Positions 9,708 to 38,965 are shown, counted from the first letter of the stretch. The stretch is DNA of 64,000 bases from a virus (IMGVR_UViG_3300006151_000007:1-64000); one strand, 5' to 3'. Translations and numbers: made by a program. Notes: generated by a model not told the origin, from the letters alone.

Positions 9708-10829
9708 ATGGACCTGAGAAGTTTTTTCACACCTGACGCTATCGCGGCCCAGTATGAGGAGGTCGCGTCCAACCAGATCCCCTACCTGGGGTCCGGCTTG
9801 TTCCCGGCCAAGAAGAAGGCCGGCCTGGACCTGCTCTGGATCAAGGGCTCGAAGGGGCTCCCTGTGTCTCTGATGCCCTCCGCTTTCGATGCGAAAGCTA
9901 CCTTCCGGGACCGTATCGGCGTCAAGAAGCTGGAGACCGAGATGCCGTTCTTCCGCGAGGGCTTCAAGATCAAGGAGAAGGACCGCCAGGAGCTGCTTCG
10001 CGTCCAGGAGATCAACGATCCGTATGCCCGCGCCACGATCGACCGGGTATTTGACGACGCCAACGCTCTGATCGCCGGTGCGAACGTGGTCCCTGAGCGG
10101 ATGATCATGCAACTGCTGTTCCCGAAGGATGGCGACGTGGGGATCGATATCTCCGCCAACGGCGTGACCTATGTCTACAACTACGATCGAGACGGGGCAT
10201 GGAAAGCCAGCAACTACACCGCGTTGACGGGGAACGACCTGTGGACGTCCGCTGCCACCGCCGACCCATTCCAGGTGTTCAAGGCCGCGAAAGACAGCGT
10301 CCGCAGCCGTACGGGGACCGAACCGGTCATCGCCGTCATGAACACGGCCACCTTCAACCTGCTGTCCGCCACGGACGCGGTGAAAAAGCGCTACCTCACC
10401 ACCAGCGGCCTGACCCTGGGCTATCTCACCGACGATGAGGTCAAGAGCGTCATCAGCGGGACGTCCCGCGTCCAGATCGCCATCTACGACAAGCAGTACA
10501 AGGACGAGAGCGGTGTGGCCCACGCCTTCGTACCGGACGGCTATGTGGCGCTGCTCCCCTCCGGGGCGCTGGGGAGCACCTGGTATGGTACCACTCCTGA
10601 GGAAGCGGACCTGATGTCCTCCCCCACCGCCGAGGTGAGCATCGTGGACACCGGCGTGGCCATCACCCGGATCATCGAGGAGCACCCAGTGAACGTGAAC
10701 GTTTTCGCCTCTGAGATCGTCCTGCCCTCCTATGAGCGCATGGATGAGGTGGCGGTGATCAAGGTCATCGGGGAGAGCACCGCCGCCCTGAACGACGAGC
10801 AGACCACCCAGAGGGCCCGCACGAAGTGA
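9708..10829 (+). CDS. Major capsid protein (Phage_cap_E-like)
   Basis: LFPAKKKAGLDL.WIKG, GSTWYGTTPEE and SEIVLPSYE. Confidence 0.9.
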   Translation: MDLRSFFTPDAIAAQYEEVASNQIPYLGSGLFPAKKKAGLDLLWIKGSKGLPVSLMPSAFDAKATFRDRIGVKKLETEMPFFREGFKIKEKDRQELLRVQEINDPYARATIDRVFDDANALIAGANVVPERMIMQLLFPKDGDVGIDISANGVTYVYNYDRDGAWKASNYTALTGNDLWTSAATADPFQVFKAAKDSVRSRTGTEPVIAVMNTATFNLLSATDAVKKRYLTTSGLTLGYLTDDEVKSVISGTSRVQIAIYDKQYKDESGVAHAFVPDGYVALLPSGALGSTWYGTTPEEADLMSSPTAEVSIVDTGVAITRIIEEHPVNVNVFASEIVLPSYERMDEVAVIKVIGESTAALNDEQTTQRARTK

Positions 10830-15381: not shown

Positions 15382-15444
15382 TTTTTCACCCCCTTCCCCT
15401 CGCATCTTACCACACCACCCCGCATTTTGAAAGAAGGTGATCAC

Positions 15445-24486: not shown

Positions 24487-24690
24487 ATGATGAGTGAAAA
24501 GACGAAGAAGTGGCTGAGGGCGGCGGCTGTCCGGGCGGTCAAGACCATGGCGCAGACGGCGGTGGCCACCATCGGGGCGTCGGCGGTGCTCACCGCCGTG
24601 GACTGGCCCATGGTGGCGTCGGCGTCGGTGCTGGCTGGGGTGCTGTCCCTGCTCACCTCCCTGGCGGGCCTGCCGGAGGTGGAGGCATGA
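24487..24690 (+). CDS. Holin (Dp-1 family)
   Basis: RAVKTMAQTAVATIG...VDW...LSLLTSLAGLPEV. Confidence 0.85.
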   Translation: MMSEKTKKWLRAAAVRAVKTMAQTAVATIGASAVLTAVDWPMVASASVLAGVLSLLTSLAGLPEVEA

Positions 24691-25469
24691 ACCTGCTGGA
24701 ATGTCTGCTCACCGCCAACCGGTGCTACAAGACCGGGGCGAAGATCAGGCCCAAAGGCGTGATGGTGCACTCCACCGGGGCCAACAACCCGATGCTCCGG
24801 CGGTATGTCCAGCCGGTGGCCACCACGCCGGAGAAGGATGAGCTGCTGTGGCAGCTCGGGGTGAACCGCAACGGGAACCACTGGAACCGCCCGGGCCTGG
24901 ACGTGTGCGTCCACGCGTTCATCGGGAAGCTGGACGACGGCAGCGTAGCGGCGGTGCAGACGCTGCCGTGGGACCATCGAGGCTGGCACGCAGGGACCGG
25001 CACCAGCGGCAGGAGCGCCAACGACACCCACATCTCCTTCGAGATCTGCGAGGACGATCTGACCGACCCGGCCTATTTTGGTCAGGCGTACCAGACCGCC
25101 GTGGAGCTGACGGCTATGCTGTGCGCCCGCTACGGGCTGGACCCCATGGCGGACGGAGTGGTGATCTGCCACCAGGATGGCTACCGCCGGGGAGTGGCCT
25201 CCAACCACGGGGACGTGTACAACTGGTTCCCCAAACACGGAAAAACGATGGACGACTTCCGGGCCGAGGTGGTCTGGGCGATGAAAGGAGATAGAGCGGA
25301 CATGGTGTACTTCAAGACACTGGACGATGTGCCCGAATATTACCGCGCAGCGGTTGACAAAGCAGTGGACAGGGGAGCGCTCAACGGCACCGGCGGCGGA
25401 GAGCTGAACGTTTCCGAGGACCTGTGCAGGACCCTCACTGTGCTGGACCGGCTGGGGAAGCTGGATTGA
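24687..25469 (+). CDS. Endolysin, N-acetylmuramoyl-L-alanine amidase (Amidase_2)
   Basis: GVMVHSTG, VHAFIG, WHAG, ISFEICED and ICHQ...HGD. Confidence 0.9.
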   Translation: MNLLECLLTANRCYKTGAKIRPKGVMVHSTGANNPMLRRYVQPVATTPEKDELLWQLGVNRNGNHWNRPGLDVCVHAFIGKLDDGSVAAVQTLPWDHRGWHAGTGTSGRSANDTHISFEICEDDLTDPAYFGQAYQTAVELTAMLCARYGLDPMADGVVICHQDGYRRGVASNHGDVYNWFPKHGKTMDDFRAEVVWAMKGDRADMVYFKTLDDVPEYYRAAVDKAVDRGALNGTGGGELNVSEDLCRTLTVLDRLGKLD

Positions 25470-25857: not shown

Positions 25858-26106
25858 ATGGGAAAAGCAAGGGTACGCGCGTGCATAAGTGACACCGGCC
25901 TCACCCGTTCAGAATGGGAGGCGGCGATCCAGGAGGCGGCCCTTGGGATAGAGGACACCCGCATCGCGGAGCTGTATCTTTTGGATGCGGTCCCGCAGGT
26001 CGATATCGGCGAAGAGCTTGGCTTGAGCCGCAGCGCCATATCCAAGCGGCTGTTGAAGATCGTCGATAGGATAGAGCGCACGGCCAGAAAACTGCATATG
26101 ATCTGA
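25858..26106 (+). CDS. Small HTH protein (sigma-70 region 4-like)
   Basis: VPQVDIGEELGLSRSAISKRL. Confidence 0.7.
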   Translation: MGKARVRACISDTGLTRSEWEAAIQEAALGIEDTRIAELYLLDAVPQVDIGEELGLSRSAISKRLLKIVDRIERTARKLHMI

Positions 26107-26112
26107 CTGGCG

Positions 26113-26146
26113 GAACGCCCCCTCCGAATGATCGGAGGGGGCGTTC
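26113..26146. terminator. Rho-independent terminator
   Basis: GAACGCCCCCTCCG-N6-CGGAGGGGGCGTTC perfect stem. Confidence 0.8.
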
Positions 26147-26313
26147 TATTGCGTATCTACTTGCTGGAGGAGTACATGAAAAGCCGTCTGGAAAACAAAT
26201 TTATCCGCGCTATTCTTGATGTAAACTGATAACCGGCCCCAGAGGGAGGAACAGCTTACCCTTTCCCTGTTCCTCCTGCCTGCGGGCTTTGTCCTGTATT
26301 TTGGAAGGGGGCG

Positions 26314-26496
26314 ATGTCTTTGCCGAAAGAGCAACCCGATAAAGCGACGTATGAAATTGAACTTCCACAAGCCATTATAGAAACCTTTGCCCGCTTTCTT
26401 GTCCCGGAGATACGGATATACTATGACAGCGAACAGGGTCAGCGGGAGTTTGCGGAGTGGCAGGAAACACAAGGGGAGGGAATCAGCGAGAATTAA
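26314..26496 (+). CDS. Small hypothetical protein
   Basis: GAAGGGG RBS; 60 aa. Confidence 0.5.
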   Translation: MSLPKEQPDKATYEIELPQAIIETFARFLVPEIRIYYDSEQGQREFAEWQETQGEGISEN

Positions 26497-26549
26497 AGCG
26501 ATATGCAAAAGCAGGGAACAAGTCACAAATCTTGGCCCCTGCTTTTGCC

Positions 26550-27068
26550 TTAGTGCAACTTGAAACCCAATTCGCGTATCATGTGGTAAAGATTTGCAAC
26601 TTCGACTTCAAATACTTTTGCTATATCAGGTATTTTTGCATTTTTACTTGGATACCTACTATTAAGTCCCTTGTTAGGAACTTCAAATGTAACTAAAGTA
26701 TAGTTATGTGCGGATGCTGTTGCAATGAGCCATGGGTCAGCAACGCTTCCTTTTGACCACTCTGTCAATGCAGATGGCGTATAACATGGATTTCTTTGAA
26801 TATATTGCAGGATAGCACTATACTTTTCCAAAATATTTGGTTGCCTATGATCTACATAAAGACCGATTTCAAGGGCATTCATCCACTCTTTCAGGCTATC
26901 GTTTCCCTGGAGGATTTCACTCCTTACTATATCCAAAATAGCTATTTTCCCATTCTTAATGGCCTGTTCCATCTGATTCCAAAATCCTGGAGCAAAATCA
27001 AATGGATAGTAAGTAAGATGTGGAGTTATCAATGAGTTTGAGTCAATCAAGAAAATGGCTTCACTCAT
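26550..27068 (-). CDS. DUF4411-family PIN-like protein
   Basis: FLIDSNSLI...YYPFDFAPGFW...ADPWLIA...VTFE...KIPDIA. Confidence 0.8.
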   Translation of the reverse strand: MSEAIFLIDSNSLITPHLTYYPFDFAPGFWNQMEQAIKNGKIAILDIVRSEILQGNDSLKEWMNALEIGLYVDHRQPNILEKYSAILQYIQRNPCYTPSALTEWSKGSVADPWLIATASAHNYTLVTFEVPNKGLNSRYPSKNAKIPDIAKVFEVEVANLYHMIRELGFKLH

Positions 27069-28240
27069 TTTGTTCCACCTCCTACACTACCAGCCAGATT
27101 AGCAAATGTAGAACGATTTGTATTTGTAAGCCGGTAAGCATCAGTATAGAGGGTTTTTCCTTCCTGTACGCTACCTACGAGCATGGAAAAAAAACGTTTG
27201 TCAATTCTACTTGCAGCAGTGCGATAAAAATCTCCACCACTTTCACCCTGTTCTTTCTTCCTTTTTCGGCTATCATTATAGAGCTTTACTGCCTGCTTTG
27301 CTATTTTTTGATAAAGCTGATAATCAATAAACCCGCTGTCATACGCTTTCCTTGCGATCACAGTAATGCCACACTTAAATTCACGCACAAGTATTTCAAT
27401 TGCCTGTTCAACATTATTTTCTTTGATCGTTAAATTCCAACTGTTTATAAATGTGGTTTGTGGCACCAATATTTCGGCTGCTACAGCATTACAAAGCGTT
27501 TCAGTTTTGTTAACCTTTTTCCCTGTGCTGTATCGATCATTAAATAAGCTATTCTCTCCTATACATATGTGAGAGAACTCATGCAACAAAGAGAAAAGCC
27601 TGCCATTTATAGAATCATTAGAATTAATAAAAATCAAGGGTGCATAAGCATCAATAACAGAAAAGGCCCTAAATTCTTCTACATCAAGTGGGCGATGAGT
27701 ATTATTACCCACGATTCCACTCATCATCACAATAACCCCTGCGTTGCTGATCGCAGTTCTTATTAGACTAAAAGATTCTTCGACAGTGCAAGTGTCCTTA
27801 TACCATTCATAGCTAATGTCTAACAAACTACGAACCTTTTGTGCAAACGTTTCAAAAGAAGATGTGCTTTTTAGCCCTCCAACAAAAGTCAAAGGACTAT
27901 TTGCTTCAGAAATTAAATACTCATGCATCCACGTCTGCACTTGATCCATATCATGCAATGTATCAATTAAATTCCGACTTGGATTTTTTAATTCTATGCT
28001 ATCGATTGTGCGGTACTCGACAATGGACAGCTCTTCTACTGGTGGAGTTTGCAAGAAAAAATACCCTAATGGTATACCTGTTGCTTTGCTCACTTTTTCA
28101 ACTTGATTAAAGGTAGGTTTTTTTTCGCCGTTTACCCACAAATTCAAATATTCTCTTATTTGATTTGGAAGTGCGTCAATTTTGATATGTGCAATAACCC
28201 AATCCAGTATCTCCATAGAAACATTGACAGGTACTTGCAT
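27065..28240 (-). CDS. HTH-fused ImmA/IrrE (COG2856) Zn metallopeptidase
   Basis: N-terminal HTH; FSLLHEFSHI (HExxH); ETLCNAVAAEILVP. Confidence 0.9.
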   Translation of the reverse strand: MQVPVNVSMEILDWVIAHIKIDALPNQIREYLNLWVNGEKKPTFNQVEKVSKATGIPLGYFFLQTPPVEELSIVEYRTIDSIELKNPSRNLIDTLHDMDQVQTWMHEYLISEANSPLTFVGGLKSTSSFETFAQKVRSLLDISYEWYKDTCTVEESFSLIRTAISNAGVIVMMSGIVGNNTHRPLDVEEFRAFSVIDAYAPLIFINSNDSINGRLFSLLHEFSHICIGENSLFNDRYSTGKKVNKTETLCNAVAAEILVPQTTFINSWNLTIKENNVEQAIEILVREFKCGITVIARKAYDSGFIDYQLYQKIAKQAVKLYNDSRKRKKEQGESGGDFYRTAASRIDKRFFSMLVGSVQEGKTLYTDAYRLTNTNRSTFANLAGSVGGGTK

Positions 28241-28311
28241 TATATTCTCACCTCCAAATTATTACTTTTCGGCACCATCTCTATGATAACAATATTTTAC
28301 TTTAATAATAG

Positions 28312-28345
28312 GCGGAGGTCAAGGCTTTTATACCTTGACCTCCGC
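28312..28345. promoter_or_regulatory. Inverted repeat overlapping the -35 box of the immA operon promoter
   Basis: GCGGAGGTCAAGG-N8-CCTTGACCTCCGC; minus strand reads TTGACC-17-TAAAAT. Confidence 0.6.
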
Positions 28346-28737
28346 TGTTCATTTTGACATCAGAGCCACACCAAGACGACAAAGCCGCCCTTAAAATAAT
28401 AGGTGTTCCTCCAATGTCCGCTTGCTGAAGACTGTCTTCTGTTCAGACGGACGATGCTGGGCATATTCGATTTTCATGGTAAACCTTCAGGAGCATAAAT
28501 CTGGGTGCGCCTATATTGCTATAAACTGTGATATTTGTCAACTAAAAAGGTAGAAATAAAAAAATATGCGCCAACGAGCAGCAAGGCGGGCCTAAGACTG
28601 CCCCGCCTTGCTCTGCACTAGACCAGGGGGGGCATAAGGTCACATGGGATTTTGGTCAGTCTGGCTCCCCAGGGGCATTATGGGAAAGAAAAATGATGAA
28701 GGGGGCTAAATAGCCAGAAAAAGTTTTTGAAAACCTC

Positions 28738-28766
28738 TTGACAGTGGGTTAAACCCATGCTATAAT
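28738..28766 (+). promoter_or_regulatory. Perfect-consensus sigmaA promoter with palindromic spacer
   Basis: TTGACA-17-TATAAT; spacer contains TGGGTTAAACCCA. Confidence 0.85.
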
Positions 28767-28797
28767 GGATACAACCTAAAGGAAAGGGGGGCGCAAA

Positions 28798-28950
28798 ATG
28801 GGGACCGAAGCTGAGAGGCAGGATACCAGAAAAGCGATGGCGTTTGATTTGTTTTCCATTATCGACAAAGACCCGGCGAAGGAGACCTACACAAAAGAAG
28901 AGATCAAAAAACTGATTTTTGTGTATGTTACCACAGCAGACCAGAAGTAA
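28798..28950 (+). CDS. 50-aa hypothetical protein
   Basis: G-rich RBS after the promoter; MGTEAERQDTRKAMAFDLF... Confidence 0.7.
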   Translation: MGTEAERQDTRKAMAFDLFSIIDKDPAKETYTKEEIKKLIFVYVTTADQK

Positions 28951-28994
28951 CAGGAACGGGGCCGGGGGACCGGCCCCGCCCAAGAGGTGAGGAC

Positions 28995-29168
28995 ATGGCA
29001 GAAACGCAAGCGCGAAAGGAATGGACGAAGGAAAACACTACCTTCGTCGGCTTGAAACTGAACAACCGCACCGATAAAGATATTTTGGAGGCTTTGGAAG
29101 GGAGATCCAAGCAGACTGAAATAAAGCGGTTGATCCGTCAGGGCATGGAGCATGACCTATCAAAATGA
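28995..29168 (+). CDS. 57-aa ribbon-helix-helix-like protein
   Basis: GAGGTGAGG RBS; FVGLKLNNRTDKDILEALEGRSKQTEIKRLIR. Confidence 0.65.
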   Translation: MAETQARKEWTKENTTFVGLKLNNRTDKDILEALEGRSKQTEIKRLIRQGMEHDLSK

Positions 29169-29200
29169 AGCAAACATCCTTTTCTGAACAAGTACAGCGA

Positions 29201-29234
29201 AAACTCCTCCGCTGGAATCAGCGGAGGAGTTTTT
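29201..29234. terminator. Bidirectional terminator
   Basis: AAAACTCCTCCGCTG-loop-CAGCGGAGGAGTTTT between convergent genes. Confidence 0.8.
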
Positions 29235-30459
29235 AGTCGGTCGAAACAGTTCCTAGAAGCTCTTCAAGCTTGTCGCGGTCCCAGAGGAGGACACCTGTGG
29301 CTTCGGCTAACTGCTTCGCGCCAGCAGTAAAATATTGATTGGTCATGACTACGCCCACTTGACAATGGTATAGTGCCTTCCCAGCGTGTACTTCCTGTAT
29401 AGGTCCATTCCCCAGATTGGAGGAATAGCATTTACATTGGATAGCATATCGAATACCATCCTTGACAGCTATAACATCAACTCCCTGGTCTCCACTGCCT
29501 TTTGTGACTTCAACATCGGTAAAGCCGTTCTTTTTTAGGAGTTCAGCACACCAATACTCAAATGCATGGCCATCCATACCGTCTGTTTCCTCTATTTTCC
29601 CAACAACAGCTTCGCACTGTTCGAGAATAGATAAACAAGCCATTGCATCAATCAAGTTGCTATCGCTCATTTCAGATAAATGCCTTTCCATTTCTTCTGA
29701 AAATAATCGACTAAATCCAGCCCCATTTTCCCTTATTAGATCTTTATAAAATGAAGTTGCCCGAATTAAGGCAGAATGGATTTGGAGTTCTTTGTTTTTC
29801 TCTAGTTCTTTCAAAATATTTGAAGGTTTATCTGTTAATCTGTTGCTTTTTGCAATAAATAGCTCGTATTTTGCCATAGTTGAAAGAATTGGTATTAACT
29901 TGTTTCTTTTTTCGAAATACGTATCAATGCGCACTGATTTATTCATTTCGTCATTATAAGAAACGACATCCCATTTTTTCTGTTCCATATATCGATTTAT
30001 AACTGCATAAAATCCATAAAAAATTGTAAAAGACCAAAAGGATACAAAAACAAAGCAGAAAGAAATTTTGTTATAGTTTTCTGGAACCATTTTCAACATA
30101 AAAAATCCGATAATCAAAAGAACAACAAATCGGACCGCTCTTTCTGCCGTTGTGCTTGTTCGGCTATTTCCATCTTTTGTAAATTCTTTTTTAATTGCAC
30201 GGCATATTGTATTGTCTACTTGTAAAGTGCTTCTTTTTCCGTCTTTGAAAAAAACAACTATAAAATTACCCTTATTGTAGAACTTTTTGATTTCAAAATT
30301 TTTTACATTGACCCAATCGTCTCCTACCTTAACTTCGCATCTATAAGCAGTTTCGGGAGATATCTTTACTGTTTTGAAAAATGGCAAGGTTATAACCACA
30401 CTGGAAAAAGAAGTCAGAAGCCCTTGCCCTTTATAATCTCCGCTTATTACTTTGTTCAT
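29233..30459 (-). CDS. Membrane-anchored Mrr-type restriction endonuclease
   Basis: Two TM segments; C-terminal MDGHAFEYW...GDQGVDVIA...AIQCK...IQEV; low GC. Confidence 0.8.
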   Translation of the reverse strand: MNKVISGDYKGQGLLTSFSSVVITLPFFKTVKISPETAYRCEVKVGDDWVNVKNFEIKKFYNKGNFIVVFFKDGKRSTLQVDNTICRAIKKEFTKDGNSRTSTTAERAVRFVVLLIIGFFMLKMVPENYNKISFCFVFVSFWSFTIFYGFYAVINRYMEQKKWDVVSYNDEMNKSVRIDTYFEKRNKLIPILSTMAKYELFIAKSNRLTDKPSNILKELEKNKELQIHSALIRATSFYKDLIRENGAGFSRLFSEEMERHLSEMSDSNLIDAMACLSILEQCEAVVGKIEETDGMDGHAFEYWCAELLKKNGFTDVEVTKGSGDQGVDVIAVKDGIRYAIQCKCYSSNLGNGPIQEVHAGKALYHCQVGVVMTNQYFTAGAKQLAEATGVLLWDRDKLEELLGTVSTD

Positions 30460-30586
30460 AAAATCCCCTCCACTTACAAAATACCACATTGTTTACAAAA
30501 TATCAATATTTTCTTGAATTTTGTTATAAGCTGTGTTATTATACAAAATATGGGCAAATGCCCTGGTTTTTTGGAGGGATGAGACA

Positions 30587-31138
30587 ATGAAGAAAGCAAT
30601 GTGTTTGATTTTGTCGATTGCGATTTTTTTGCTTTTGTGTTCATGTGAGTATGGAGACGATGCAAACAGGGAAAATTCTCAGCAACCTTTACCCAGCGAA
30701 ACAAGTGATACGGAAGAGACTGTAAACAGTGTTGGGCTAGATGGAACTATTTCAGGCGACTGCTTCGATATCTCTATTGTAGATGTAAAATGGACGGATG
30801 CGCTGGAAACATCTCTTTATACTGTTACTCCTGAAAAGGATGGGAATAAGTTGCTATGTCTGATTTTTTCTGCTAAAAATACAACAGATGAAACATACAA
30901 CTTAGGATCTTTTAATGCCTACGTCGATAAACAAGCAACGCTCCCCACATCGGTGATTGGTGGGATCGATGATGCAATGATATTTGTTGGAGCGGTCGCA
31001 AGCGGAATGGAAATGAGAGCATATTCAGTTTGGGAACTCCCCGGAGATTGGGAGGAATTTCAGCTAAATTACTTTGAATCAACTGGGCCAGAGTGCCAAC
31101 AGTATTTTATACTTCATCAGGATGATATCGCTTCATAA
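30587..31138 (+). CDS. Lipoprotein (DUF4352-like)
   Basis: Signal peptide with lipobox LLCSC; acidic linker; beta-rich domain. Confidence 0.7.
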   Translation: MKKAMCLILSIAIFLLLCSCEYGDDANRENSQQPLPSETSDTEETVNSVGLDGTISGDCFDISIVDVKWTDALETSLYTVTPEKDGNKLLCLIFSAKNTTDETYNLGSFNAYVDKQATLPTSVIGGIDDAMIFVGAVASGMEMRAYSVWELPGDWEEFQLNYFESTGPECQQYFILHQDDIAS

Positions 31139-31150
31139 TGCTGTGATGCA

Positions 31151-31182
31151 AAGGCCCTCGCTACAAAAAGTAGCGGGGGCCT
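31151..31182 (+). terminator. Terminator
   Basis: GGCCCTCGCTAC-loop-GTAGCGGGGGCC followed by a T tract. Confidence 0.65.
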
Positions 31183-31202
31183 AAATTTTTTCTGAAACCT
31201 AC

Positions 31203-33584: not shown

Positions 33585-33649
33585 ATAGGAGGACATAGAG
33601 ATCAGGCAGCAAGGCTGCCATGCCGATAGGCGTCTCTGTGTCCTCCTAT
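33585..33649. repeat. Long imperfect inverted repeat
   Basis: ATAGGAGGACATAGAGA ... TCTCTGTGTCCTCCTAT with an inner GGCAGC/GCTGCC stem. Confidence 0.8.
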
Positions 33650-34119
33650 TCATAGATGCTCGTATATTCCCCCATCCCGGAAAAGTCCATCTCCCCAGAG
33701 AACGTTCCTTTATATGGCGCGTCTACCGGGCCGGAAAGCTTTTCGAACATGATGAGCGCATACTTATCGCCTTCGCGTAGCTCGATCTCGTCATTCGATA
33801 CGTTCGTCAGACGGAAAAAGACCTTCGTGTGGTGTCCCGGCTGATATATCGGAGCATCTAGGGACAAACCCTGACGGATCCTGCTGTTTTTCAGCGACAA
33901 GCGAGCTATCATATCGTTCGGTAGCTTGATGTTCTCCTTAGTGCCTACGAAAACCGATTCTCCGCTTTTCAAAGTGACGTGAGAAGTCAGGGCCTCTCGG
34001 GAGACGAAATGATCCGCACGCAGATCGTACCCGATGCTAGTGAGACAATCCGGCTCGTGGTTCTCGATCAGATCGTGCTTCGATATCCAGTTATGTATCT
34101 CGCGGTCTGTCAGCACCAT
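33646..34119 (-). CDS. dcd: dCTP deaminase (trimeric dUTPase superfamily)
   Basis: MVLTDREI, IGYDLR, LPNDMIARLSLKNS.IRQGL and YKGTF. Confidence 0.75.
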   Translation of the reverse strand: MVLTDREIHNWISKHDLIENHEPDCLTSIGYDLRADHFVSREALTSHVTLKSGESVFVGTKENIKLPNDMIARLSLKNSRIRQGLSLDAPIYQPGHHTKVFFRLTNVSNDEIELREGDKYALIMFEKLSGPVDAPYKGTFSGEMDFSGMGEYTSIYE

Positions 34120-34210
34120 ATATACCCCTCCTCGCTGATGGTACGCTTATTATACACCGAACGATGAAGATCGTAAAGCAAGAAAAATACGCTTCGATTT
34201 GGAGGTGCCC

Positions 34211-34598
34211 GATGGGCTACGCCTATTACGACCCGAACCCCGCCGGGCGGTCCGTCGGGGACTGCACCGTCCGGGCCATCTCGAAAGCTCTGGGGCAGAC
34301 GTGGGAAGAGACCTATGTGGGGCTGGCCTTGGAAGGCTTCCGGTGTGGCGACCTGCCCAATGCCGACGATGTGTGGGGGAGCTACCTGAAAGCGCATGGC
34401 TTCACCCGGCACTGGCTCCCGGACGAGTGCCCGGAGTGCTACACTGTGGCGGCGTTCGCGCAGGACGAGCCCCAGGGCATCTACGTCTTGTCCATGCCGG
34501 GCCGCCATGTGGTGACTGTGGTGGATGGGAGATATTTCGACTCATGGGACAGCGGGGGAGAGGTCCCCACATACTACTGGATGAAGGAGCGTCGATGA
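34211..34598 (+). CDS. Conserved hypothetical protein, papain-like peptidase candidate
   Basis: GDCTVRAIS...HVVTVVDG..FDSWD. Confidence 0.7.
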
Positions 34599-35092
34599 TG
34601 GCATACCCTACCTATCAATATCCGGGCTACCAGCCCACACCGGTCTACTATCCGAGCCCTGTGCCCGACCAGCTCGCCCAGCTCCGGCAGAACCAGATGC
34701 AGCAGCCGATGATGCAGGGGCCGCAGATGCCGCAGCAGCCGGTCCAAGCTGTGCCCCAGCCTCAGCAGGCCGACCCCGGCGGGATCATCTGGGTGCAGGG
34801 AGATGCCGGAGCAAAAGCGTACATGGTGGCCCCTGGGAATACGGTCCCGCTGTGGGACAGTGAGGACCAGGTGATCTATCTGAAATCGGTGGACATGTCC
34901 GGTATGCCGTCCATGCGGGTACTGGATTACACGGAGCGCAGCATCGCACAGCCACAGCGCCAGGAGCAAGCTGCGCCCAAGATAGACCTGACCCCATACA
35001 TCACCCGGGACGAGCTGGAGGACATCCTGGCCGAGCGCCTGAAACGGCCTGGGAGGACCGCCAAGCCAAAGGAGGAAGCGAACGATGAGTAA
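34595..35092 (+). CDS. Q/P/Y-rich low-complexity protein with a globular core
   Basis: AAGGAG RBS; Q/P/Y N-terminus, then IIWVQGDAGAKAYMVAPG. Confidence 0.75.
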   Translation: MMAYPTYQYPGYQPTPVYYPSPVPDQLAQLRQNQMQQPMMQGPQMPQQPVQAVPQPQQADPGGIIWVQGDAGAKAYMVAPGNTVPLWDSEDQVIYLKSVDMSGMPSMRVLDYTERSIAQPQRQEQAAPKIDLTPYITRDELEDILAERLKRPGRTAKPKEEANDE

Positions 35093-35327
35093 TCCCATTT
35101 TCCAGGCCCTTGGCGGGCCGTGCGGACAGCAGGGAGGCCCTATGGGCATGATGCAGGCTTTCCAGCAGTTCATGCAGCAGAATCAGGGCAAGGACCCGAA
35201 TGAGATGATCCGGCAGATGCTTTCCTCCGGCAAGCTCAACCAGCAGCAGCTCGACCAGGCCCAACAGATGGCGAAGCAGATGGAGGGGCCGCTGAGCGGG
35301 ATGAAAGCGATGTTTGGTTTCAAGTAA
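35085..35327 (+). CDS. Q/M-rich small helical protein
   Basis: GGAGG RBS; 80 aa. Confidence 0.75.
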   Translation: MSNPIFQALGGPCGQQGGPMGMMQAFQQFMQQNQGKDPNEMIRQMLSSGKLNQQQLDQAQQMAKQMEGPLSGMKAMFGFK

Positions 35328-35380
35328 GTCTAAAAATGCGGCCGCATTTTAGAAAATACATCAACAAAGGAGAGTAAACT

Positions 35381-36262
35381 ATGTCTCTTGGTAGTGAAAG
35401 CGGCGTTCCTGCCGTCATGAATGTGGCTCCCACCGGCTCCGGCTACAATGGGAACGGCGGCGGCTGGGGCGGTGATTGGGGAGCTTGGATCATCCTGTTC
35501 CTCATCTTCGGCATGTTCGGCTGGGGCGGCATGGGTGGCTTCGGCGGGTTCGGCGGCGGCGCCGGCCTCCAGGGTGCTCTGACCCGCGCCGACCTGTGCA
35601 GCGAGTTCAACTTCAACGGCCTGGAGAACGCCGTGCGTGGGGTACAGCAGGGCATCTGCGACAGCACCTATGCCCTCAACAACTCGATCAACGGCCTGGG
35701 CGTGAACGTCATGCAGGGCTTCCACGGCGTGGACAATGCCATCTGTAACCTGGGCTTCACCACCCAGCAGGGCTTCAACGCCACCCAGGTGGCCATGATG
35801 CAGGGCAACAATGCTCTTCAGGCGCAGCTCGCCCAGTGCTGCTGCGACAACCGGGTGGGCCAGATGCAGATCGCCAACCAGATGCAGGCGGACACCTGTG
35901 CCCTGACCAACACCATGAACAACAACACCCGGGACACTTTGGCGAACCAGGACGCCAACGCTCGCGCCATCTTGGACGCCCTGACTGCCCAGCGGCTGGA
36001 GGCCAAGGACGAGCGCATCGCCGCTCAGGCCGCCCAGATCCAGGCGCTCCAGCTCAGCGCCTCCCAGGCGCAGCAGAACGCCGCGATCGGCGCGATGATC
36101 TCCGCCAGCGAGGCCACCATCCTGCGCCGCACCGGCGCGGAGTGCCCCACTCCTGCCTACGTGGTGCAGCCGCCCACTCCGGTGAACTTCCCCACCAACT
36201 GCTGCGGCACGTTCAACGGCTGGGGCAACAACGGCGGCTGTAACGGCGGCTGCGGGTGCTGA
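35381..36262 (+). CDS. Gly-rich TM, N/Q-rich coiled-coil, Cys-rich protein
   Basis: AAGGAG RBS; WGAWIILFLIFGMFGW; 13 Cys including CCC and a terminal GCGC. Confidence 0.85.
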   Translation: MSLGSESGVPAVMNVAPTGSGYNGNGGGWGGDWGAWIILFLIFGMFGWGGMGGFGGFGGGAGLQGALTRADLCSEFNFNGLENAVRGVQQGICDSTYALNNSINGLGVNVMQGFHGVDNAICNLGFTTQQGFNATQVAMMQGNNALQAQLAQCCCDNRVGQMQIANQMQADTCALTNTMNNNTRDTLANQDANARAILDALTAQRLEAKDERIAAQAAQIQALQLSASQAQQNAAIGAMISASEATILRRTGAECPTPAYVVQPPTPVNFPTNCCGTFNGWGNNGGCNGGCGC

Positions 36263-36380
36263 CACGATCCAACGCATTTTTTGACGCAGTCTGATGCGTT
36301 GGCTCCCCGGAACGACGGGTGATCATTTCGGGGCGGCGGACCATGTGTCTGCTGCCCCTGACATTTAGGAGGTATGATCT

Positions 36381-36779
36381 ATGGCCTGTAGACCTGTCTG
36401 CAAGCTCTGTGACCGGCTGGTGATCAGCCAGGCCGTAACCTTTACCGGCGGCAATCTGGCGATCGACCTGCCCGCCGGGAACTATAACAACAAAGAAAAG
36501 TACTGCATCGTGGTGGCCCAGGCGATCCCTGCTGCCACGACTATCAACGCGCCTGTGGTGGTCACCATCGGCGGCGGAACGGAGCTCTATCCTTTGACCG
36601 ACCGTTGCTGCGCACAGCTCACCGCCTGCGCCATCCGGACCAGGACGCGGTATGCCACAGTGGTGTCCACCAGCGGGACCGGAGGCACGTTCAAGCTTCT
36701 GGGCAACGCCTGCCCGTGCCCCACCAACAACTTGGCCAGCATCAACGGGACGGCCCCCGCCGCCGCGCCTACGGCCTGA
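36381..36779 (+). CDS. Cys-rich beta protein
   Basis: AGGAGG RBS; 9 Cys in 132 aa. Confidence 0.8.
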   Translation: MACRPVCKLCDRLVISQAVTFTGGNLAIDLPAGNYNNKEKYCIVVAQAIPAATTINAPVVVTIGGGTELYPLTDRCCAQLTACAIRTRTRYATVVSTSGTGGTFKLLGNACPCPTNNLASINGTAPAAAPTA

Positions 36780-36795
36780 AAGGAGAGACGACATC

Positions 36796-37227
36796 ATGGA
36801 AAAACTTTACGACCTGAAGGACAAGCTGTGCGAGGAGCTGGAGGAACTCGCCCGCAAGCAGGAGATGGGAGCGGGGGATCTGGAAGTCATCCACAAGCTC
36901 ACCGACACCATCAAGAACATCGATAAGATCTGTATGCTGGAGGACGAAGGCGGCTACAGCGAAGCTGTGGATGGCGGAGACTATGGCCAGGGCTCCAGCT
37001 ATGCCGGCCGTGGCAGGCGCGATACCAGAGGCCGGTACAGTCGAGACGACGGGCGGGACGGCGGTATGGCCGGCTACAGTTCCCGCCGCCGGGACAGCCG
37101 CGGCCGCTACAGCCGCGACGATGGCCGCAGCGAGATGATGGAGCATCTGGAGATGGCTCTGGACTCCGCCACCGAAAAGGACCGGGAGACCATCAAGCGC
37201 TTCATGCGCCAGTTGGAGAACGCCTAA
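36796..37227 (+). CDS. Acidic helical protein with Arg-rich repeats
   Basis: AAAGGAG RBS; RRD[TS]RGRYSRDDGR twice. Confidence 0.8.
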   Translation: MEKLYDLKDKLCEELEELARKQEMGAGDLEVIHKLTDTIKNIDKICMLEDEGGYSEAVDGGDYGQGSSYAGRGRRDTRGRYSRDDGRDGGMAGYSSRRRDSRGRYSRDDGRSEMMEHLEMALDSATEKDRETIKRFMRQLENA

Positions 37228-37239
37228 GGGGGTGCGGCG

Positions 37240-37578
37240 ATGTCCGCGCCGAACCTCAAAGAGATAGAATGGGCCATCTCTGAGTTGGAGCAGGAGGAGA
37301 GCTCCGAAGGCCGGTACACGCTGCTGGCCGCGCTCTACACCTGCCGGAACGAGATGCTTGGCCTGTCCGCTCCCCAGCCGCAGATCGCGGCCTACTCGGA
37401 AGCGCCGGCTCCGGCCCAAGAACGGCTGGGCCATTATGGCGACAGCGACTTTCTGAGGGCGGTAGCGGGGAAGGACCCGTCGGACGCATGGGCGGTCATG
37501 GACGAGCTCATGGAGACGCTCCAGGTGGTGAACCAGAGGGCCTATGACAGCGTGATGCGGAAGCTGGGGAGATTGTGA
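37240..37578 (+). CDS. Hypothetical protein
   Basis: AAGGGGG RBS; last gene of the operon. Confidence 0.75.
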   Translation: MSAPNLKEIEWAISELEQEESSEGRYTLLAALYTCRNEMLGLSAPQPQIAAYSEAPAPAQERLGHYGDSDFLRAVAGKDPSDAWAVMDELMETLQVVNQRAYDSVMRKLGRL

Positions 37579-37580
37579 CG

Positions 37581-37606
37581 AGGAGGGGCTGAGAGGCCCC
37601 TCCTTT
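37581..37606. terminator. Terminator at the prophage junction
   Basis: AGGAGGGGC-N6-GCCCCTCCT-TT. Confidence 0.75.
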
Positions 37607-37639
37607 GTTAGCCATATATAGTATGACCTACGGGTTAGT

Positions 37640-38965
37640 TCAATTATGGCGAAAAGGAGATACAAAAAAACGGTCGTCGTTCGTCACGGTTATCGTGCCG
37701 ATGACTCGGCTCCAAAACTCCTTTTTTTCCTGTCTTGAAAGCCATCCATACGCCATCAATATGTTTTGTACGGGCTTGATGTCTACGAGCTTGGGGGGCT
37801 GGGCTTCAGGAGCGTGGACTTCTCGCAACTGATCTCGCAGGGAAAGGTAGTCCCGTTCATACGACTCCTTTTCGATCAGGTCGTTCAGATACAGGTCCTT
37901 CAGCTTCTCCATCTTCCGCTTGATCTTTTCCACATCGACGGTCGGTCGTTTCGATACCGCCGATCGTGTGGCCAAAACATTATGCATCTCGTAGCTCGAT
38001 ATGAGGTTCTCCAAAAGCCATTGCTCCAGGACGAGTTCGCTCGTCCTTTTTTTATGTGTGCATAAGTGTAACTTCTCATATTTCGTACAGCGATAGTATG
38101 TATATTTTTTTGCGACCACATGAGCGCTCAACCGGTTCCCGCATTCTGCGCAACGCACGAGGCTGGTGAACAGATACACCCGGTCGGATCTGGCAAGGTT
38201 CCGTTGCGCTCGTTGCTTGAGCAATTCCTGGCATAGCTGGAACTGCTCCTGCGAAATGATAGGCGGGCAGAAGTCGTCTTGCCCGTGCGCGCGGCCGATG
38301 TATCGTTCGTTATCTAAGAGGGCGCGGATCCCGGTCTGCCCGTACACGAGGCCATATTTGTTCATGACGTATTCCCGCAAGGCCCGGACCGACCGGATGA
38401 TGGTATATTGCTGGAATATATCTTGTGCGATCGGCGCGGTGTCTGGGTCGATCGCCATCTTCTTGTTCTCTATCTTATATCCCAGAGGCACCTTTCCGCT
38501 GATGACCTCTCCACGCTGCACCTTATCTTCAAAAACGAACTTGATACGTTCTCCAGTCCTGTCCGCCTCGTCCTGAGCCACGCTGAGCATGATGTTTATC
38601 TTCAGCCGCCCGGATGCGGTGGAGGTGTCGTAATCCTCCTGGATGGTGCGCCAGTCCACGTGGCACTTCTCCAAGATCTCCTGGACTTTGTAGTACTCTG
38701 CGATATTGCGGAACCATCGGTCCAGCTTGGTGAACACGATGAGCTCGCCCCTTCCGGCCTGGGCGTCCAGGAGGAGTCGTTGCAGCTCCGGGCGCTTCTT
38801 GGCGGGCTTTCGGGCGGAAATGCCCGCGTCTATATAGACGCCCACCACCTTGTGCCCGTTGGTCTTGGCCCACTCCTCCAGGGCGGTGACCTGTGCCTCG
38901 ATGGACAAGCCATGGACCGCCTGCTCCTCAGTGGATACACGGGCGTATAGGAAAACTCGCTTCAT
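37640..38965 (-). CDS. Large serine recombinase (integrase)
   Basis: LYARVSTEEQ, FTKLDRWFRN, recombinase domain, Zn ribbon CAEC...YYRC. Confidence 0.95.
   Translation of the reverse strand: MKRVFLYARVSTEEQAVHGLSIEAQVTALEEWAKTNGHKVVGVYIDAGISARKPAKKRPELQRLLLDAQAGRGELIVFTKLDRWFRNIAEYYKVQEILEKCHVDWRTIQEDYDTSTASGRLKINIMLSVAQDEADRTGERIKFVFEDKVQRGEVISGKVPLGYKIENKKMAIDPDTAPIAQDIFQQYTIIRSVRALREYVMNKYGLVYGQTGIRALLDNERYIGRAHGQDDFCPPIISQEQFQLCQELLKQRAQRNLARSDRVYLFTSLVRCAECGNRLSAHVVAKKYTYYRCTKYEKLHLCTHKKRTSELVLEQWLLENLISSYEMHNVLATRSAVSKRPTVDVEKIKRKMEKLKDLYLNDLIEKESYERDYLSLRDQLREVHAPEAQPPKLVDIKPVQNILMAYGWLSRQEKKEFWSRVIGTITVTNDDRFFVSPFRHN

Follow-up and report, generated by a model that had tools for sequence, protein, structure and literature searches.

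A widespread, undescribed accessory gene cassette of gut viruses with a predicted papain-like peptidase, a cysteine-rich protein and a swappable small beta protein

What are the seven small genes that lie between the cargo region and the integrase of the virus IMGVR_UViG_3300006151_000007, and do they belong together? We addressed this question in the 64,000-nucleotide stretch of this virus that was analysed (positions 1 to 64,000, hereafter the window). The initial annotation described an unexplained operon of seven co-oriented, tightly spaced genes closed by a terminator and suggested that its products form a self-assembling, proteolytically matured structure. We found seven plus-strand open reading frames, which we named g1 to g7, and the features of the locus are as follows.

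34212 to 34598, plus strand: g1, candidate minimal papain-like cysteine peptidase, 128 aa, phrog_3754.
34595 to 35092, plus strand: g2, 165 aa, with a Q/P/Y-rich low-complexity N-terminus, a small conserved beta-rich core (IIWVQG...LDYTE) and a basic C-terminal helix, phrog_21718.
35085 to 35327, plus strand: g3, 80-aa Q/M-rich protein with a conserved N-terminal M-x-N-P-x-F-x-A-L-G-G, phrog_22984.
35381 to 36262, plus strand: g4, the signature protein, 293 aa, with an acidic or neutral N-terminal leader, a Gly/Trp-flanked hydrophobic segment (WIILFLIFGMFGW), an N/Q-rich helical region with an invariant CCC motif, a coiled-coil stretch and a Cys/Gly-rich C-terminal tail, phrog_16490.
36266 to 36365, plus strand: g4-g5 spacer with two stable hairpins (-53.3 kcal/mol, z -2.3), a possible internal attenuator or processing site.
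36381 to 36779, plus strand: g5, allele A, 132-aa protein predicted to be all-beta, with a Cys-rich N-terminus.
36796 to 37227, plus strand: g6, 143 aa, with helical ends flanking an R/G/S/D/Y-repeat disordered centre, phrog_28802.
37240 to 37578, plus strand: g7, 112-aa helical protein with a disordered middle.
37576 to 37610, no strand assigned: terminator hairpin shared with the convergent integrase gene.

The gaps between consecutive genes are -1, -8, 53, 118, 16 and 12 nt, the ATGA start of g2 overlaps the g1 stop, and each start is preceded by a GGAGG-like Shine-Dalgarno site. The hairpin overlaps the g7 stop codon (-29.6 kcal/mol, z -4.1, followed by UUUGUU) and closes the block 30 nt before the convergent serine-integrase gene at 37640-38965. 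The start of g1 is the ATG at 34212 rather than position 34211 as first annotated, because the upstream ATG at 34164 has no Shine-Dalgarno site and homologues start at M-G/S-Y. A consensus scan found no plus-strand sigma-70-like promoter in the 92-nt gap before g1. The compositions given in the initial annotation were also correct: g4 has 13 Cys, g5 has 9 Cys, g2 is Q/P/Y-rich, g3 is Q/M-rich and g6 is R/D/G-rich. Thus, the described operon is real, although the statement that none of its proteins resembles a virion protein needs correcting (see below).

To ask whether the proteins belong to known families, we scanned all seven against Pfam and NCBIfam and found nothing usable, whereas five fall in PHROGs of unknown function. 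Pfam scans of the alternative g5 allele (allele B), of other allele A members and of individual g2 members also found nothing. PDB sequence-profile searches with alignments of g1, g2, g4 and both g5 alleles returned nothing significant, and the ESM Atlas returned only unnamed viral clusters for g4 and g5. Literature searches for a description of the cassette or for proteomics of carrier phages found nothing.

We next tested whether the seven genes co-occur in other phages, the absence of which had been proposed in advance as grounds for rejecting the initial reading, and found that they do. The same gene order was present in nearly all IMG/VR loci long enough to show it, and the order g1 to g7 recurs in dozens of independent phage and prophage loci. 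Using narrow HMMs, 31 of 66 eligible loci overall had all seven genes, including g7 after g6. Of these 66 loci, 32 carried g5 allele A, 34 carried allele B and none lacked a g5. Conservation is far beyond chance, and the invariant core is g4 plus the small beta protein that follows it. The two g5 alleles are unrelated (hhalign probability 0.7%), and allele A has 367 representative clusters. The alleles are exchanged independently of g4: g4 is up to 89% identical across different g5 alleles, and its mean identity is the same within and between types. The longer g5-containing representatives look like deletion or chimeric gene calls and were not used as Rosetta-stone evidence.

The g4 family is large, with at least 7959 relatives at E<=0.001, and 222 of the scanned species genomes matched strict g4 patterns, across Oscillospiraceae, Lachnospiraceae, Bacilli and others. 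Alignment of g4 relatives showed invariant Cys. g4 relatives with similar neighbouring genes occur in Clostridium perfringens phages, in crAss-like phages and in Bacteroides phages, including C3_41T2LP, and g4 itself occurs in predicted Methanomassiliicoccales viruses. The same g4 architecture was seen in crAss-like and Bacteroides phages, and functionally similar RD/YD-repeat proteins to g6 occur in the Bacteroides-phage cassette. The full cassette is present in Butyrivibrio phage Ceridwen, an apparently virulent phage that has no integrase and was seen only in lytic growth on a host that does not sporulate. In Bajarodcaudo virus 5 the cassette follows the holin and endolysin genes, and none of the 107 annotated features is an integrase. 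The cassette is also not specific to the prophage end, as it lies inside the head operon in Dulem virus 35 and among replication genes in other phages. In phiCP26F, most of the cassette is deleted between flanks 96-98% identical to vB_CpeS-17DYC, with a remnant of g7 surviving as gp36. We conclude that the cassette is optional and not tied to spores or lysogeny.

To examine the candidate enzyme, we modelled g1 with AlphaFold2 (pLDDT 88). All top VIA structural matches were papain-like peptidases, led by the C39 double-glycine leader peptidases LahT150 (6mpz, Z 7.3) and ComA (5xe8, Z 7.1), a class that also includes PCAT1, and by Josephin deubiquitinases (Z 7.0), over 101-108 residues. Z values near 7 are within the range of generic fold matches. 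C18 lies in the first long helix (residues 15-27), H99 starts strand 99-104 and D110 ends strand 107-110, and all three residues are invariant in 24 homologues, consistent with the Cys-His-Asp enzyme candidate first proposed. However, g1 had no Pfam or NCBIfam hit at E<=0.1, including PF03412 and PF13529, is not fused to an ABC transporter, has no proven GG-leader substrate and has no ubiquitin-like partner, and no exporter is encoded in the cassette. A search for longer fused forms of g1 found none, which is weak evidence. g3 carries a conserved ALGG and many g4 N-termini read (Y/L)S(L/V)xDIAAxTG(G), but the g4 leaders resemble LSxxELxxIxGG only loosely, with the GG often replaced. In distant cassettes a small HExxH metallopeptidase candidate takes the place of g1, although all such matches were below Pfam's gathering cut-offs, and HExxH candidates also occur in the Bacteroides phage (a PolyVal metallopeptidase) and in crAss cr116_1.

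The AlphaFold2 model of g5 allele A (pLDDT 86) had a single clear PDB match, bead III of the Pseudomonas phage Pa193 tail fibre gp47 (9b45_2 residues 236-340; PMC11456595), at Z 5.9 over 99 residues against 3.3 for the next hit, with a Foldseek probability of 0.97. Matches in BFVD included many predicted tail-fibre and receptor-binding proteins at E around 1e-3. Unlike the Pa193 bead, g5 is a stand-alone 132-aa protein with a Cys-rich N-terminus, encoded outside the tail module. No TNF-like chain was listed among its top PDB matches. This comparison is relevant to the BclA C-terminal domain and ExsFA (BxpB) exosporium TNF-C1q-like trimers, in which a stalk protein, a knob protein and a proteolytic step occur together, as we infer here; the cassette is not restricted to spore formers.

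We then considered the topology of g4. Over 127 members there is a single hydrophobic peak, with 0.36 K/R on average in the N-flank against 1.8 in the C-flank, and the maximum hydropathy outside the first 110 residues is below 0.9. The hydrophobic core is short (about 13 residues), so true membrane insertion is uncertain. A Gly-rich hydrophobic segment followed by long helical or heptad regions, a partner subunit, a dedicated protease and conserved Cys recall class I viral fusion proteins and spanins, but by architectural analogy only. The profile match to HA2 was not significant (E 0.06-0.4), and g4 lacks the C-terminal membrane anchor of a class I fusion protein. The charge bias does not fit the type II, N-in topology of an i-spanin, and the g5 N-terminus MACRPVC has no signal peptide or lipobox that would make it an outer-membrane lipoprotein partner. 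We therefore rejected membership in both classes.

Taken together, the analysis establishes a fixed gene order, an invariant core of g4 plus a small beta protein, two unrelated alleles in the beta-protein slot, a peptidase gene (by predicted fold or motif) that is usually present, carriage by apparently virulent phages and by phages of non-sporulating hosts, and, by eye and without a predictor, no N-terminal signal peptides. What follows is inferred from sequence and predicted structure, without experimental or expression data. With moderate confidence, we propose that this is one copy of a self-contained, optional, horizontally exchanged late-gene cassette of gut and rumen tailed viruses. In this view, the products would assemble in the cytoplasm late in lytic growth into a cysteine-rich helical rod (g4), a shape inferred from sequence features alone, whose Gly-rich hydrophobic tip would interact with a membrane and would probably be exposed or matured by the cassette's own peptidase. 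An interchangeable, probably trimeric knob (g5) would pair with the rod, and the disordered Q/P/Y-rich and R/D/Y-rich proteins (g2, g3, g6 and g7) would act as assembly or matrix partners. Cleavage is itself inferred, as no cleavage site is defined and the N-terminal GG-like motifs are not strictly conserved. In the window, the cassette is separated from the lysis genes by about 9 kb of cargo and an oppositely oriented gene; it therefore needs its own promoter, which the consensus scan did not find, and it could be expressed in the lysogen here. We think that the cassette serves virus spread, as an egress device, a particle accessory or a persistence factor, rather than lysogenic conversion or sporulation.

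The interpretation in the initial annotation was thus supported in part. A proteolytically matured, cysteine-rich multi-protein assembly remains the most economical reading, and an occlusion-like shell, a fusion or pore complex, or a condensate is neither shown nor excluded. The spore-coat or exosporium reading was not supported. Its compositional likeness to coat proteins (Tyr/Gln-rich, Arg-repeat and Cys-rich) and the presence of SipL and SpoIVA genes near the prophage in some hosts are outweighed by carriage in phages of Butyrivibrio and by g4 relatives in phages of Bacteroides and predicted archaeal viruses, none of whose hosts sporulate. In addition, no coat-protein Pfam or NCBIfam family was matched. 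This reading is largely refuted by host range and we consider it very unlikely.

Two alternatives deserve more weight, although both remain tentative. The cassette could encode a virion-attached accessory fibre or decoration, in which g4 trimers form a stalk, g5 a distal receptor- or mucus-binding knob, g1 matures the fibre and g6 and g7 act as assembly chaperones. The bead-like g5 model, the swapping of the knob slot as seen for receptor-binding proteins, the co-orientation with late structural genes, the absence of signal peptides by eye and the labels 'viral fiber' or 'spike protein' given to g4 relatives by crAss annotators are consistent with this possibility. However, the cassette moves between siphoviruses, crAss-like phages and predicted archaeal viruses with unrelated virions, so no conserved docking partner is evident, it is dispensable in viable relatives, and the hydrophobic Gly-rich segment and low-complexity partners are unusual for fibres. 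About equally possible is a membrane-tethered egress or lysis accessory, in which g4 would insert N-out/C-in in the cytoplasmic membrane late in infection and, with g5 and its partners, modulate membrane disruption or release. The cassette directly follows holin and endolysin genes in many Firmicutes phages and in crAss cr116_1, the cytoplasmic membrane is the one structure shared by all host types, and g4 has a glycine-zipper-like segment whose charge bias favours N-out/C-in. Against this, the post-lysis position is also the generic cargo hot-spot, the cassette lies elsewhere in several genomes, these phages already encode holins, and g4 has no lipobox or second membrane segment and is not spanin-like.

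The remaining readings are doubtful. A lysogenic-conversion or superinfection-exclusion moron would fit the terminator at the prophage right end next to attR or the integrase, the position after the lysis genes seen for cargo of temperate Firmicutes phages, the optional nature of the cassette and, in the window, the uncoupling from the late operon. Yet the cassette is a fixed seven-gene module that is carried by apparently virulent phages, embedded in late operons and conserved across viruses of different host phyla, and no plus-strand promoter was predicted. A bacteriocin-like system, in which g1 would cleave double-glycine-type leaders from products released by phage lysis instead of by an ABC exporter, would fit the C39-like fold and the ALGG of g3. 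It is less likely still, given that no C39 or leader family was matched in Pfam or NCBIfam, TD, GS and GN variants replace the GG, the products are large (80-293 aa), no immunity gene is recognisable and the peptidase is replaced by unrelated HExxH enzymes. A remote but not excluded possibility is that the cassette is a pan-gut-virus device independent of host and virion type, whose cysteine-rich rod-and-knob complex and sticky low-complexity partners, made in bulk late in infection, would act after lysis as a redox-switched protective or adhesive matrix, reduced and loose in the anoxic gut and disulfide-locked on exposure to air. This would aid transmission between guts, as a bacterial-virus analogue of occlusion bodies.

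The cassette is one of the commonest multi-gene blocks of unknown function in gut viromes, with the g4 family spanning viruses of Clostridia, Bacilli and Bacteroides and predicted viruses of methanogenic archaea. Cultured carriers exist (Butyrivibrio phage Ceridwen and C. perfringens phages CPD1 and vB_CpeS-17DYC), as do near-isogenic natural deletion relatives (phiCP26F and, by tblastn, phiCP39-O and phiCP13O), and its role is therefore directly testable. A conserved, mobile, optional module with its own predicted protease and a swappable putative knob points to a virus function not yet in the textbooks, such as egress, particle accessory, persistence or competition.

To examine the proposed operon, we first asked how the genes in this part of the 77-kb IMG/VR virus record are arranged. 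Seven genes, here called g1 to g7, lie on the + strand between 34212 and 37578 with overlapping or short spacers, and a GGAGG-type ribosome-binding site precedes each start. A strong hairpin terminator overlaps the last stop codon. The gene immediately upstream, which is dCTP-deaminase/dUTPase-like (PF22769, E 2.5e-13) and could be a nucleotide-pool or defence gene, is on the other strand. Therefore, the block cannot simply be read from the preceding genes, yet a consensus scan found no + strand promoter. The initial annotation described the composition of these proteins accurately, including 13 Cys in g4 and 9 in g5, and the observation of a seven-gene block was confirmed. None of the seven proteins matched Pfam or NCBIfam, and five fall in PHROGs of unknown function (3754, 21718, 22984, 16490 and 28802). 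We also found two stable hairpins in the 118-nt spacer between g4 and g5 (z -2.3), which may form an internal attenuator or processing site that sets stoichiometry. The features in and around the block are as follows.

1-26 kb, structural and lysis genes of one phage, including a collagen-like tail fibre, an XhlA-like protein and an endolysin at 24510-25469
26100-31200, low-GC (0.41-0.42) island of mostly minus-strand cargo, followed by anti-repressor genes
26550-27068, partner (phrog_11126) of the regulator at 27065-28240
27065-28240, HTH/metalloprotease-like regulator (phrog_2439)
29233-30489, 418-aa protein
33646-34119, minus strand, dCTP-deaminase/dUTPase-like gene, divergent from the cassette
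34212-37578, + strand, the seven-gene cassette
36266-36365, two hairpins in the g4-g5 spacer
From 37640, serine integrase and repressor opening a second phage genome with its own terminase, capsid and tape-measure genes

The full record, including its remainder (L120, record positions 64001-77241), holds two complete and different structural modules, with terminases at 2872 and 52087, capsid genes at 9708 and 60519, and tape-measure genes at 15427 and about 65157. This looks like two phage genomes in tandem, or a chimeric assembly, joined at the cassette-integrase junction. A 54-kb IMG/VR contig (L005) shows the same junction. The low-GC island between the lysis genes and the anti-repressors is absent from L005, which is otherwise near-identical, and it may be a toxin-antitoxin or defence insert. 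In integrated prophages elsewhere, the cassette is the last operon before host DNA, whereas in the circular genome of Dulem virus 33 it abuts the integrase, as it does here.

To determine whether the gene order is conserved, we performed tblastn and HMM searches over 118 loci and found the order g1-g2-g3-g4-g5-g6-g7 again and again. Among 66 loci with enough flanking sequence, every one has g4 followed by a small beta protein. Of these, 31 have all seven genes by our narrow HMMs and 19 show only the g4-g5 core, although on inspection the core-only loci still carry diverged analogues of g2, g3 and g6. The g4 family is very large, with at least 7959 hits. Literature searches returned no paper describing the cassette.

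The gene following g4 comes in two alleles, A (present in the window and in 32 loci) and B (34 loci), which show no detectable homology (hhalign probability 0.7%). Cassettes whose g4 proteins are up to 89% identical carry different alleles, and mean g4 identity is the same within and between allele classes. We conclude that this slot is exchanged by recombination independently of the rest of the cassette. We predicted the structure of allele A from a 60-sequence alignment (pLDDT 86), and its one clear PDB match was bead III of the Pa193 tail fibre gp47 (Z 5.9 compared with 3.3 for the next hit). A search of BFVD returned many predicted tail-fibre and receptor-binding proteins.

The g1 protein was confidently predicted (pLDDT 88) to fold as a minimal papain-like enzyme with invariant C18, H99 and D110. 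Every listed VIA match from rank 1 to about 40 is a papain-like peptidase or a close relative of that fold, with C39 double-glycine peptidases and Josephin leading at Z about 7. There was no sequence-family match, and thus this is a fold-level assignment. In distant cassettes without g1 (Blautia-, Bacilli- and Anaeroplasmatales-binned loci), a small HExxH protein follows the g6 analogue and shows weak, below-cut-off similarity to SprT/M78/DUF6782. The Bacteroides-phage and crAss versions carry HExxH or PolyVal metallopeptidase genes. The replacement of one putative peptidase type by another suggests that proteolysis is integral to the module.

All members of the g4 family share an almost uncharged or acidic N-terminal leader of about 35 residues and one short hydrophobic segment flanked by Gly and Trp. 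This is followed by an N/Q-rich region with invariant Cys, including a CCC motif, then a coiled-coil stretch and a Cys/Gly-rich tail. The charge bias weakly favours an N-out/C-in orientation, and there is no second hydrophobic segment. One 92%-identical g4 homologue (protein P0004, 274 aa) lacks the hydrophobic segment (maximum hydropathy 0.69), and is either a natural deletion variant or an assembly artefact.

We next asked which hosts and lifestyles are associated with the cassette. The full cassette, interrupted by an HNH endonuclease, is in Butyrivibrio phage Ceridwen, an isolate that was only seen growing lytically and that its authors judge to be virulent (PMC7372960). Butyrivibrio is not known to form spores. 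A reduced cassette is in C. perfringens phages CPD1, XP41-N3, 17DYC, HMD-PC1, PMQ04 and CPQ4. Homologues of g4 with identical architecture occur in many crAss-like genomes, where they are annotated "spike protein/glycoprotein" or "viral fiber", in the cultured Bacteroides phage C3_41T2LP, and in predicted Methanomassiliicoccales viruses. In one of the latter, vir215 (L130 1652-2686), the g4 homologue lies just downstream of a reverse transcriptase gene next to a tail protein, which may be a diversity-generating retroelement. The genomic position of the cassette varies: it lies after lysis genes in most cases, inside the head module (Dulem virus 35, L066), or beside recombination genes (C3_41T2LP). 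In some phages, though not in this window, a small sigma-70 region-4-like HTH gene lies immediately upstream of the cassette (loci L001 6641-6877, PF04545, 26.7 bits in L001; and L066 4777-5031), and it may be a dedicated regulator. HNH/I-HmuI-type homing endonuclease genes are inserted inside or right beside the cassette in several unrelated phages, namely Dulem virus 33, Ceridwen, CPD1 and Bacteroides phage C3_41T2LP (L003 7073-7624; L124 7518-8312; L125 5618-6241; L127 3934-4554), which fits a conserved sequence that is often shared between co-infecting phages.

The cassette is also dispensable in viable relatives. In phiCP26F, the 2.9 kb holding g2'-g4-g5 and the start of g7' is replaced by 1.4 kb of other genes, while the flanks are 96-98% identical to vB_CpeS-17DYC and a g7' remnant survives as gp36. 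Phages phiCP39-O, phiCP13O, phiCP34O and phiCP9O likewise gave no g4 hit.

Taken together, these analyses newly provide the predicted fibre-bead fold of allele A, the lack of detectable relationship between the two alleles and their free exchange, the statistics for the g4-plus-knob core, the recurrent replacement of the candidate peptidase, and a natural pair of cassette-plus and cassette-minus phages. The interpretation in the initial annotation was supported only in part: a proteolytically matured, cysteine-rich multi-protein assembly remains the most economical reading, but we excluded its spore-coat reading on the basis of host range. Further, carriage by apparently virulent phages and embedding in late operons make pure lysogenic conversion unlikely. 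What remains is a non-secreted, protease-matured, cysteine-rich rod-and-knob assembly with disordered partners, made late in infection. The gene order, the core, the two alleles of the slot after g4 and the range of carriers were observed directly, whereas the exchange of alleles, the lack of secretion, the rod, its assembly with the knob, peptidase activity, maturation and late expression are inferred from sequence features, structural models and genomic context. The assembly could ride on the particle, work at the membrane during egress, or act after release; our data do not distinguish between these possibilities, and we consider the first two about equally likely. The portability of the cassette across unrelated virions and hosts speaks for a self-sufficient device aimed at something universal, either the membrane or the gut environment.
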